Positions 13,950 to 32,276 of a stretch of 64,000 nt of DNA are shown in pieces. The notes below the pieces were generated by a model. That model made no database searches. It saw nothing but the letters and a program-made list of their open reading frames with translations, and had not been told where the DNA came from. This DNA is from a virus: positions 32,001 through 96,000 of IMG/VR virus record IMGVR_UViG_3300034110_001237, one strand, 5' to 3'. Position 1 is the first letter of the stretch; each line of letters starts with the position of its first letter. The translations under genes and the position numbers were made by a program.

Positions 13950-14342
13950 TTATTCTTGTCTTACTGATACCGACACTGATTCAGAGTAATAACCGTTTGA
14001 TGACCCGAAGAATCGTAACACCACCAATCCTCGCTCAGTCGCCATTCGATAATAAGTCCAAGTAAATGATTCACCCTGATAGCAAGATACTCCAACAACC
14101 TCATCATTGCTACAAGTTTCCTCAGCCATAACAACAGTGTGTCCGATTAAATCATCAATGTCGCCAATGATCTCTTCCAAATACACGTCTTCACAGCAAT
14201 CTTGGGAGTGATAGAACGTAAACACTAAACCACTTGTTGTACGTACTACAAACTCTTCATCGTGACGGTTACCGCTCACAGATACGATAGTTTCACCCAC
14301 CATTCTGTTCAATGTTTCGTTTACTTCGTTTTGCATATTCAT
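13950..14342 (-). CDS. phage hypothetical protein with YHxQDCCE motif
   Basis: YHSQDCCEDV and GSSNGYYSE motifs, recalled from other phage hypothetical proteins; AGGAG RBS. Confidence 0.85.
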   Translation of the reverse strand: MNMQNEVNETLNRMVGETIVSVSGNRHDEEFVVRTTSGLVFTFYHSQDCCEDVYLEEIIGDIDDLIGHTVVMAEETCSNDEVVGVSCYQGESFTWTYYRMATERGLVVLRFFGSSNGYYSESVSVSVRQE

Positions 14343-14654
14343 AATAATTCTCCTATTCGTTAATCTACGAATGCATAAGAGTTTTATTTATTATTGATGA
14401 ATATGTCGCTACTATACCACGATGTAATTTTGAACGCAAGCCATTATTTTAGAATTTTAGTTATGCTTTCGTGTTGTTCATCGGTATTGTATGGATTTAA
14501 GGACTAAAACACCTTTAAAACATTGCAATGATGGATGATTTCTTGTACAATACAGACAGAGTTAAGCCAATGAGTATGGCTATAAAACAGGCTTAGTTCT
14601 TGTATTGGAGCTGATTTCAGACTTTAAATCATAAACCTATTTGGAGATAAAACC

Positions 14655-15180: not shown

Positions 15181-16116
15181 ATGAAAGTTATCCAGCATAA
15201 TACACATTTTAATCGCTCTCTGCCAAAAGATGGCATTTCCGATAACTTGGTTTCATTTTTAGAGATGATTAATCAACAATTTTCATTTGATCACGCCCAT
15301 CTCTATCATCTGACAAATGCAAATATCAGTGATTACAAAAGTGTTATCATTGAGGCTATTGGTAATCGTATTAAATTGCTTCGTGGTGTTGGGCCAAGAG
15401 ATAACCAAGATTCATTGGTTAAGGAAATTAATTCTGATTTTGATGAGATTATGGATGCAAATATTTTTCCAGTATCTTTGATTATTTTTGATTATGTCTA
15501 TGGTTCAACAGTAGAATCTTCAATGGTATTTTTTCATGAACATAATAACATGTTAATGATTAATACTAAATTTTCTACATTAGTTTTTGAAAATAAATAC
15601 TTTCATGCTCCAAATATTTCTTCATCTGATGGTCTTTATTATTCCCCTGCTGTAGAATCGCTTGCTTATGAAAGTTCTACCACAAAGGGAACTTTTCCTT
15701 TTGCATCATTTTTAATCCCTGTTAATATAGAAAAAAATCATTTTGAATCGCCATACAGAGAAATTCATCAGAAAAAAGCAGAATTTCAAGTAAGAGAGCT
15801 TGATGGTGGTCAAGATAAATTTCAACAAGTAACAATTCCACCTAATTTTGATATGAATAAATTTATGTTTCGATCTAATGGTCAGCCAAAGATTCTTAAT
15901 ACGAGACTTATCTATAACAATGAAGTTATTTTTAATGATTATGATATTATTGTTTGTGATCCACAAAAAATAGTTATGCAAAAGTTACTACCCTTTTTGA
16001 CTGACTTTAAATCACAATATGAGATTATTGATAGCATGCCTGTACAGGTTTCTTCCGAATATTATGAACATTTCAAAGCCAATATCTTGCCTGTTATTGA
16101 TATGGCTAAATGTTAA
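15181..16116 (+). CDS. C-terminal DMxxI-tag family protein
   Basis: ATG after GAGG; ends VIDMAKC. Confidence 0.85.
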   Translation: MKVIQHNTHFNRSLPKDGISDNLVSFLEMINQQFSFDHAHLYHLTNANISDYKSVIIEAIGNRIKLLRGVGPRDNQDSLVKEINSDFDEIMDANIFPVSLIIFDYVYGSTVESSMVFFHEHNNMLMINTKFSTLVFENKYFHAPNISSSDGLYYSPAVESLAYESSTTKGTFPFASFLIPVNIEKNHFESPYREIHQKKAEFQVRELDGGQDKFQQVTIPPNFDMNKFMFRSNGQPKILNTRLIYNNEVIFNDYDIIVCDPQKIVMQKLLPFLTDFKSQYEIIDSMPVQVSSEYYEHFKANILPVIDMAKC

Positions 16117-16135
16117 TATTTTTTCAAAAAAAGTA

Positions 16136-16164
16136 TTGCCAAAGTGATCGAAATGTCGTATAAT
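16136..16164 (+). promoter_or_regulatory. sigma70-type promoter for the ncRNA-tRNA unit
   Basis: TTGCCA-17nt-TATAAT with upstream A tract; no RBS or ORF downstream. Confidence 0.8.
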
Positions 16165-16170
16165 AGTCCC

Positions 16171-16525
16171 GTTGTTAAGCAATAAGGTAATCTTGGGAAG
16201 TTGGCTTAGAAGCAGCCATCTTATAATGAGTAGAGCGGTTGCCATAGGTGTTTGGGATTAAGTGATGGTAAGCATCGGGTTTAAATGATTTAGCGGTCAT
16301 TTAAAGGTATCGGTGACAAGTGAGCCACGGTTTGTCGAAATCGAATCCACATTAAAGTAGATTTTGCAGATCAAAACGCCTCAGCCAAAAGCTCCCAGTT
16401 CTTGCAATAATGTAAGAATTCGCCGTGGTTGTGGTCTTGGTCAAGTAAGGAGGCACCCCAGAAATGGTAAGGCTGAATTCTCTTTTGGCGTAATAGCACA
16501 CCATGATTATGATTGTTTTTGCAAC
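16171..16525 (+). ncRNA. structured RNA containing a split mimic of the 23S rRNA H43-H44 (uL11-binding / GTPase-associated centre)
   Basis: GTTGGCTTAGAAGCAGCCATC (16200-16220) and GCGTAATAGC (16488-16497) match the conserved 23S rRNA 1059-1079 and 1091-1100 sequences as recalled; 5' and 3' ends pair; nested helices; higher GC than flanks. Confidence 0.85.
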
Positions 16526-16530
16526 AAAAC

Positions 16531-16599
16531 CTGCCACTAAGGCTGACCTTGGCCCTCTAAAAGCTAAAGGGAACGGTTCGACTCCGTTGTGGTGGACCA
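16531..16599 (+). tRNA. atypical amber-suppressor-type tRNA (anticodon CUA), short D arm
   Basis: Acceptor CTGCCAC/GTGGTGG, A73, CCA; T arm AACGG-TTCGACT-CCGTT; anticodon loop CTCTAAA; D arm AGG-CTGA-CCT. Confidence 0.75.
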
Positions 16600-16609
16600 A
16601 CTTCTAAAT

Positions 16610-16644
16610 AATGCCAGCTCATAGTGATATGATGTTGGCATTTT
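16610..16644 (+). terminator. intrinsic terminator closing the ncRNA-tRNA unit
   Basis: AATGCCAGC...GTTGGCATT plus T tract. Confidence 0.65.
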
Positions 16645-16700
16645 ATTGTCTTTATTTTATTTTTATGATATACTTATCCAAATTTTTGGAGATCTGTTAA

Positions 16701-31763: not shown

Positions 31764-32276
31764 ATGGCTATTCATTTCGCAGCAGACATCAATGCAGAAC
31801 AAGGCACTGACCTTGGGTGGAAATTTGAAAATGGTGTTTTGTATGAGTCCGTCAGCTACATGCTAAAAGAGATCTTTCCTGAATTTCTTTCCATGCTTAA
31901 AGTGGACGATGAACATCGTTATATTCCAGAAGTTCATATTCAAAAGAAAATCGAATTCCATGACAAGATTGATGCCGAATTCTTCTTGTTCTACTATCCT
32001 GAAAAAGAAACATCTGGTCAAGATCCTTATGTGGACGAAAATGGTGCCCAATGCCATGCTTCCAGTAAAGATGTTGATCTTGAAGTTCCAATGTATGAAC
32101 TTCGTGAAGCGGTTCGAGCAGAATTTCCACAAGTCGTAGATGTAGAAAAGTTTGTCGATAATGTTTTGAAACTGCACAGTGATGATACTTACTATATGAA
32201 CCATTATTATGGCGATAGTGTCACTTATGCTTACATTAAAATCAAAAAAGATGCTGACCTTAGTCGCTATCTCTAA
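31764..32276 (+). CDS. hypothetical acidic protein
   Basis: ATG after AAGGA. Confidence 0.8.
   Translation: MAIHFAADINAEQGTDLGWKFENGVLYESVSYMLKEIFPEFLSMLKVDDEHRYIPEVHIQKKIEFHDKIDAEFFLFYYPEKETSGQDPYVDENGAQCHASSKDVDLEVPMYELREAVRAEFPQVVDVEKFVDNVLKLHSDDTYYMNHYYGDSVTYAYIKIKKDADLSRYL

Follow-up and report, generated by a model that had tools for sequence, protein, structure and literature searches.

A phage-encoded copy of the 23S rRNA GTPase-associated centre carries a conserved, structured side arm in H44 that is probably retained in the RNA

The window analysed here is a stretch of 64,000 nucleotides from a virus (positions 32,001 to 96,000 of IMG/VR record IMGVR_UViG_3300034110_001237). An ORF-free gap between two of its ORFs (16117-16700) houses an RNA that copies the GTPase-associated centre (GAC) of bacterial 23S rRNA and is interrupted by an arm of 256 nt. 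The complete non-coding RNA would measure ~330 nt (roughly 16170-16515), with the arm as its body, and would be driven by its own promoter from a transcription start predicted at ~16170. The elements of the locus, all on the plus strand, are as follows.

16136-16164, +: sigma-70-type promoter (TTGCCA, 17 nt, TATAAT), with 11 of 12 consensus matches
16186-16196, +: 5' strand of an H42-like closing helix (partner 16501-16511); 9/9 H42 pairs covary in alignment A1
16197-16231, +: H43 copy, 1082-1086 mini-hairpin and GAGU (23S 1057-1090)
16232-16487, +: the arm
16232-16235, +: Pa, 5' strand (AGAG, followed by an invariant C16236), paired with 16480-16483
16241-16249, +: P2, 5' strand (GCCAU-A-GGU), paired with 16422-16429 (GCC-GUGGU)
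16252-16257, +: P3, 5' strand, paired with 16393-16398 (UUGGGA/UCCCAG)
16280-16305, +: hairpin UUUAAAUGAUU-UAGC-GGUCAUUUAAA, seen in the closest relatives only
16321-16383, +: UGAG/CUCA helix enclosing a long hairpin, whose loop holds a conserved GAAUCC (16343-16348)
16398-16419, +: P4, hairpin GUUCUUGCA-AUAA-UGUAAGAAU
16443-16451, +: purine-rich junction strand AAGUAAGGA (motif AGUR plus 3-5 nt)
16452-16474, +: hairpin module, with Pb (GGC/GCU), internal loop ACC/UAAG, Pc (CCA/UGG) and loop GAAA
16480-16487, +: Pa, 3' strand (CUCU), and linker UUUG
16488-16511, +: H44 loop and 3' strand (GCGUAAUAGCAC, 23S 1091-1102), then the 3' strand of the H42-like helix, assigned by covariation and 23S alignment
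16531-16599, +: tRNA-like element with 3' ACCA, read from the sequence, co-transcribed and outside the arm
16610-16647, +: probable terminator, an imperfect inverted repeat (AAUGCCAGC / GUUGGCAUU) followed by a U-rich tail, from a reading of the sequence

The two elements downstream of the GAC copy are both atypical. The tRNA-like element has an acceptor stem (CUGCCAC/GUGGUGG) and a T arm (GGUUCGACUCC), lacks a normal D arm, and is called neither by ARAGORN nor by the Rfam tRNA model; it is nevertheless 97% identical in the two closest relatives, L058 and L032, and has a recognisable counterpart in L065. The putative terminator is missed by the terminator scanner because its loop is too long. 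The window's record is flagged as a provirus, and an RNA almost the same as that of L032 sits on a 1.86-Mb metagenome contig (L078, Ga0308158_10000001); the phage may be integrated into, or co-assembled with, a bacterial chromosome.

The junctions of the arm can be placed to the nucleotide: 16231 is the last base of GAGU, the arm opens with AGAG at 16232 and closes with UUUG at 16487, and GCGUAAUAGC begins at 16488. Alignment with 23S rRNA bears out the placement given in an earlier note on this DNA, exactly at U1090/G1091, and also its statement that deletion of 16232-16487 leaves a contiguous H43-H44. Indeed, when 16186-16231 was joined in silico to 16488-16515, 50 nt aligned without gaps to genuine 23S rRNA, with 45/50 identities to a Paenibacillus-type fragment (L205) and 43/50 to that of Salmonella LT2 (L203), while with the arm kept in the alignment ends at the junction. 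The 5' half (16194-16244) is also matched by the Rfam model for bacterial LSU rRNA (LSU_rRNA_bacteria, E 0.0026, cmscan). The phage copy departs from the Paenibacillus rRNA at five positions: four of them make up two flipped base pairs, 1058-1080 and 1082-1086, both of which covary in the phage RNAs, and the fifth is U1101 to A. The H43 stem with its 1065-1073 loop, the U1082-A1086 mini-hairpin, the H44 stem with its 1093-1098 loop and the H42 closure are all present, and every helix is kept and covaries across 20 homologues. Position 1101 is A (43) or G (3) in the phage RNAs as opposed to U in 23S rRNA, and a U1090-R1101 pair likely closes the three-way junction, as judged from the sequences. 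In L068 and L069 the H44 segment reads GUGUAACAAC in place of GCGUAAUAGC, which converts C1092-G1099 to U-A and so shows selection on structure rather than mere copying of sequence. The structural papers examined offer no detail on positions 1088-1091. Two records, L205 (Paenibacillus phage Pd_22F, MZ092003.1 83276-84708) and L208 (IMGVR_UViG_2775507074_000001), contain genuine uninterrupted bacterial 23S rRNA; these stretches are probably host DNA or contamination, and neither belongs to the mimic family.

Homologues were gathered by BLAST and pattern scans from phage isolates, IMG/VR contigs and contigs of metagenome-assembled genomes (MAGs). The insert-length comparison that the earlier note had proposed gave a clear outcome: all 46 distinct RNAs that were parsed are interrupted at the same nucleotide, by arms of 66-332 nt (median about 140), and one further member is armless. 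Isolate members comprise the Pseudomonas phages pf16, Astolliot, Milchi and UNO-G1W1, Aeromonas phage 4_4572, Xanthomonas phage XacN1 and Cronobacter phage GAP32, while Xanthomonas phage XaC1 and Pectobacterium phage CBB match the GAC 5' half by BLAST only. About 70 IMG/VR contigs and 8 MAG contigs (Clostridia, Nitrospirota and others) match the family. Among 185,579 species genomes only those 8 do so, all of them MAG contigs in which the flanks are not rRNA, which argues for a phage element and against a cellular rRNA variant.

The viral scan returned no uninterrupted GAGU-GCGUA form, and a looser scan returned one contaminating real rRNA and one genuine armless member (L207:1590-1680, IMGVR_UViG_3300045988_112927). 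In the latter, the only such member found, GAAC is joined directly to GCGUAAUAGC in a GAC copy of ~60 nt, which lies ~16 nt upstream of a tRNA gene on a 190-kb phage contig. A GAC copy can thus exist without the arm, which is a supplement and not an essential part.

The genomic setting is dominated by tRNA genes, which surround about 20 of the 46 RNAs, always on the same strand. In 11 cases a tRNA starts within 150 nt of the arm end, the closest at about 30 nt, and this proximity suggests that tRNA-processing enzymes release the RNA; it would probably be trimmed from a tRNA-type transcript. No neighbouring protein gene is common to more than 5 of the 46 loci, which argues for a self-contained RNA, and Pfam searches of nine neighbouring ORFs were uninformative. 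With Rfam 15, only tRNA passes the gathering threshold in the window and 11 homologous loci. Full-text literature searches returned no description of the mimic-RNA family, which is apparently undescribed.

The arm is closed by a four-base-pair stem, Pa, and this helix covaries strongly. The closing helix AGAG/CTCT proposed in the earlier note is paired in 45 of the 46 distinct homologues through 16 strand combinations, and all four of its pairs show changes on both sides in the 20-sequence alignment. The opening bases of Pa are purines in most members (in all of those from the 5'-anchored scan), the invariant C comes next, and the arm ends in the four Pa bases followed by a UUUR linker (UUUG in 40 of the 46, UUUA in the other 6). 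Across the same 20 sequences, the specified structure (H42, H43, 1082-1086, H44, Pa, Pb and Pc) is paired in 89.8% of cells compared with 72.3% in shuffles, and 118 cells are doubly changed compared with 38; when partners are slid by 1-3 columns, pairing falls to 35-58%. An alternative AGAGC-GGUCU pairing, suggested by RNAalifold from five sequences, was rejected because Pa has perfect Watson-Crick covariation family-wide.

The arm would exit H44 between U1090 and G1091 via Pa and return via the UUUR linker, forming a three-way junction. The continuous 3' strand (C1100-A1101-C1102), together with the likely U1090-A1101 pair, would keep the two halves of H44 stacked and so preserve the uL11/thiostrepton fold.

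Towards its 3' end the arm holds a hairpin module, which was found in 26 of the 36 RNAs recovered by a scan blind to it. Both of its helices covary: Pb is GUC/GAC, GCC/GGC or GAC/GUC elsewhere (GAC/GUC in L058), and the third of the three Pc pairs covaries. The loops closed by Pc (UAAC, GAAA, GAGA, UAAA, UAAU) are GNRA-like, and an AGUR motif precedes the module in 30 of the 46 homologues. In viral contigs and species genomes, the exact module pattern was confined to the family apart from chance matches in GC-rich DNA. Between Pa and Pb sits the variable part of the arm, which in L009 is a hairpin of 17 nt and elsewhere reaches about 280 nt.

Several readings of this region were considered and set aside. 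The stretch UAAGGAGG (16446-16453) resembles a perfect Shine-Dalgarno sequence and belongs to the purine-rich junction strand; as a conserved ribosome-binding site it was rejected, homologues reading AAUGAGG, GAAGAGG, UCAAAGC and others at this place. The AGUR...GAA sequences flanking Pb misfit the register of a bulged-G motif, by reading, with four intervening unpaired nucleotides. Pairing of the module's UAAG with CUUA (1064-1067) of the H43 loop is not borne out by covariation in the members whose loop reads CCUA or AUUA. An informal comparison with the k-turn, UAA/GAN motif and 11-nt receptor consensus sequences gave misfits. Finally, the tetraloop type follows no pattern against the variable GAC pairs beyond relatedness, and no covariation links it to any GAC position.

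The remainder of the window's arm was compared among the five distinct sequences of its type: the window together with L032 and L058, followed by L065, L023/L057 and L074, the last being the one additional relative obtained from a metagenome scan. A looser viral scan for arms of this type returned noise alone. The minimum-free-energy fold is unremarkable by itself (z = -1.13), and the case for structure is therefore a comparative one. P2 is paired at 8/8 positions in all five members, with U.G to C-G changes, and has the consensus GCCAY-N-GGY with RCC-GUGGU. P3 is less firm, keeping 6, 5, 5, 5 and 3 of 6 pairs; its terminal pair is broken in L058, and in L074 a GAGG/CCUC helix, noted by eye in a shifted register, would be compensatory. 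The four pairs of UGAG/CUCA are invariant in the five members, and the inner stem beneath differs in sequence while staying complementary in L065 and L074. Of the four lineages with a window-type arm, three keep the GAAUCC of the loop and L023 has UAAUCC. The motif may take part in a tertiary contact or pseudoknot; a helix with GGAUU (16255-16259) would be in competition with P3. Compared with L032 and L058, 13 of 14 substitutions within the assigned helices keep the pair, and three double changes occur.

The earlier note had listed complementary stretches within the insert, all of which are present in the window, and their fates in the homologues diverge. Its two hairpins were upheld: UUUAAAUGAUU/GGUCAUUUAAA keeps 11/11 pairs in L058 despite six substitutions, two double changes among them, and GUUCUUGCA/UGUAAGAAU has a counterpart of different sequence at the same place in 5/5 subfamily members. 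Three of the proposed nested helices fade across the five members, in which TTGCCAT/ATGGTAA is paired at 7, 6, 2, 3 and 5 of 7 positions, GGTGTTT/AGGCACC at 7, 7, 3, 4 and 5 of 7, and GATTAAG/CTTGGTC at 7, 4, 2, 2 and 0 of 7; they clash with the better-kept P2, Pb and Pc. The fourth, AGCCACGG/CCGTGGTT, is complete in the window and L058 (8 of 8 in each), is reduced to 5, 6 and 6 of 8 in the other three, and competes with P2.

Conservation of the arm matches that of the rRNA copy. The arm is 91.8% identical to that of L058, with no indels, and the GAC 5' half is 91.3% identical, whereas identity at third codon positions in the adjacent gene is only 64.4%. For L032, the corresponding values are 97.3% for the arm and 76-78% for third codon positions. 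Since third positions drifted while arm and GAC identities stayed equal, the arm is as constrained as the rRNA copy and, on these sequence comparisons, is under purifying selection.

These features bear on whether the arm is removed, a possibility raised in the earlier note as a non-canonical excised intron that an RNA ligase might rejoin; comparison across the family does not support it. Under self-splicing, by a group I-like intron or a new ribozyme class, the exons would join into a 70-nt GAC RNA. The arm is highly structured and conserved, as such an element might be, one armless homologue exists, as with intron-less alleles, and in the window U precedes the arm and G is its last base. L1090 is moreover a catalogued group I site, at the same H44 nucleotide, in fungal nuclear LSU rDNA (PMC1299323), which may indicate no more than that the backbone can be reached and tolerates insertions there. 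However, the terminal G to which the earlier note drew attention holds in the window and not family-wide, the last base being G in 40 of 46 RNAs and A in 6, so that the omega G of group I introns is not conserved. Arms of 66 (L009, L013), 88, 92 and 107 nt occupy the same site; a group I core needs about 200 nt or more, for which the window's 256 nt would be large enough, and 66 nt is, to our knowledge, far below any self-splicing intron. No Intron_gpI, group II or small-ribozyme model matches 16100-16700 at E up to 10, nor any of 11 loci, with the largest arms, at gathering score, in agreement with the earlier note's failure to find a P7/J8-7 core; the P3-P7-P8 core and guanosine site of RF00028 were among the features sought. 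In a P1 helix, a guide close to the start of the intron pairs with the end of the 5' exon and forms a U.G pair at the splice site. The window's strongest candidate for such a guide, GUUUGG at arm position 19, makes five pairs with the 5' exon, mostly G.U wobble, and among the 46 homologues such complements lie at inconsistent positions from 4 to 80, with 2-6 pairs. On each of these counts (core, guide, terminal base and size) the arm differs from the fungal L1090 introns. Furthermore, there is no endonuclease ORF, and the arm interior is swapped between lineages, which argues against a common catalytic core. Nor does the arm resemble a group II intron (5' GUGYG, 3' AY), as it starts with AGAGC and ends with UUUG and has no Rfam match to domain V (RF00029). 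Taken together, self-splicing is scarcely credible.

Enzyme-dependent removal, in which a nuclease would cut at both junctions and a phage RNA ligase would rejoin the exons, or the halves would stay base-paired as in the 23S rRNA intervening sequences excised by RNase III, is very unlikely. The two RNA ligases that the earlier note counted in the window are indeed encoded, one Rnl2-type (PF09414, 42184-43308) and one T4 Rnl1-type (PF09511, 55728-57050), both more than 25 kb from the RNA; a third PF09414 match lies outside the window at genome position 14009-14482. A PF09414 ligase is present in 5/5 complete isolate phages with the RNA, and in XacN1 the mimic RNA lies directly downstream of, and abuts, the gene for a 220-aa PF09414 ligase, annotated as a 2'-5' RNA ligase. 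The H42-like helix could, in addition, hold two fragments together. Against this, ligase genes occur within the fetched flanks of 2 of the 46 loci, and such genes are frequent in large phages that carry tRNAs, in which they are established to act in tRNA repair. The closing stem has 4 bp in every member, which is too short for RNase III, whose established substrate requirements exceed it, and in 46/46 this basal stem leads into a junction in place of the long near-perfect basal duplex of RNase III-type intervening sequences. An archaeal-type bulge-helix-bulge has two 3-nt bulges on opposite strands of a 4-bp helix; Pa has the 4 bp, but the unpaired AGU and UUUR (UUUG in the window) face each other at one end and are not staggered. 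Finally, one would not expect a spacer that is thrown away to retain a common module and to be conserved to the level of the GAC part. A retained arm acting as a switch is unlikely. Here CCGUGGU (16423-16429) would pair either with P2 (GCCAU-A-GG) or with AGCCACGG (16323-16330), and a ligand or protein would gate the GAC copy. Both pairings are complete (8/8) in the window and L058, but the second drops to 5-6 of 8 in L065, L023 and L074 while P2 stays at 8/8; no riboswitch family matches, and most members have entirely different arm interiors.

We consider it most likely, in light of the above, that the 256 nt are a modular, conserved, folded side arm that forms a three-way junction in H44 and is not an intron; the sequence comparisons lead us to infer that the arm is retained in the mature RNA. 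The other explanation of the earlier note, a second functional RNA domain on the uL11 site, fits the shared nucleotide in 46 homologues, the covarying closing stem, the common module and the rRNA-level conservation.

Among known systems, the flanks resemble the bacterial 23S GAC (the top of H42, with H43 and H44; E. coli 1051-1108; the uL11- and thiostrepton-binding region) nearly base for base, with compensatory departures at 1058-1080 and 1082-1086. Unlike its model, the phage RNA is free-standing, with its own promoter and with H42 reduced to a generic covarying stem; the compared rRNAs and the Rfam LSU consensus have no 1090/1091 insert, whereas all but one of the phage members carry the arm. 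The leader of the ribosomal protein L10 mRNA (RF00557) and other ribosomal protein leaders likewise imitate the same 23S region off the ribosome to capture a ribosome-binding protein. The phage RNA matches neither RF00557 nor any leader model, lies in phage tRNA-type operons and not upstream of a ribosomal protein gene, and is far closer to rRNA; the leaders have no such arm. GOLLD and ROOL are likewise large non-coding RNAs with elaborate folds that often lie next to tRNA genes of phages, but they are not rRNA copies, and the phage RNA has no Rfam match to either. The best analogy for the evolution of the arm is offered by rRNA expansion segments and the RNase III intervening sequences of 23S helices 25 and 45, which also place variable, lineage-specific structure at one fixed point of the core. 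These extend a hairpin tip, whereas the phage arm branches off anew from the 5' strand of H44, carries a conserved module and has a 4-bp base.

The retained arm would consist of two parts. One is a lineage-specific, swappable ornate domain, represented here by P2, P3, P4, two hairpins and the long hairpin with the GAAUCC loop, which would serve as scaffolding; the other is the family-wide module of Pb, the ACC/UAAG internal loop, Pc and the GNRA-like tetraloop. Our best guess is that the arm provides a second contact surface or a structural brace: the module may brace the isolated GAC fold through a tertiary contact, or offer a site to a partner protein. The whole RNA would act off the ribosome, imitating the factor/uL11 site. 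One function for "the arm" is not assured, as about 28% of arms are without the module and the jumbo-phage members XacN1 and GAP32 have another arm type. In XacN1 (L204, AP018399.1 about 150380-150600, minus strand), this different arm type, shared with Cronobacter phage GAP32, ends in GACCCUUAGAGCAUUUG.

As to a more specific role, we tentatively entertain, without favouring it, a two-part decoy, in which the module (or other modules in other lineages) would be presented at a set angle to the uL11/thiostrepton site, and the two together would trap a host factor that normally reads the factor-binding region of the ribosome. The target might be a translational GTPase, an enzyme of the stringent response or one that depends on uL11, or a toxin directed at the GAC, for instance Tre23, and the swappable ornate part would, if this is true, tune the decoy per host. 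Tre23 is an H44-specific ADP-ribosyltransferase that modifies H44 at 1095-1098 (PMC8661411), and the existence of a GAC-directed toxin makes a decoy role conceivable for the whole RNA. The arms themselves do not appear to copy other regions of 23S rRNA: matches to Salmonella 23S were scattered chance matches of 9-16 nt with nothing consistent, and no copy of the sarcin-ricin loop was found in the 46 arms with a 14-nt core at up to 3 mismatches or as a compact AGUA-GNRA-GAA hairpin.

Phages carry tRNAs, tmRNAs and a few ribosomal proteins. We found no report of a free-standing phage copy of a functional centre of ribosomal RNA. The arm sets this RNA apart from a plain rRNA fragment, being nearly universal in the family, fixed at one nucleotide, under purifying selection and equipped with a shared module. 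If the arm stays in the RNA as a domain and is not an intron, the question shifts from splicing chemistry to the binding partner of the RNA in the infected cell, where possible roles would include sequestration of uL11, interference with translation factors and absorption of a ribosome-directed defence enzyme.
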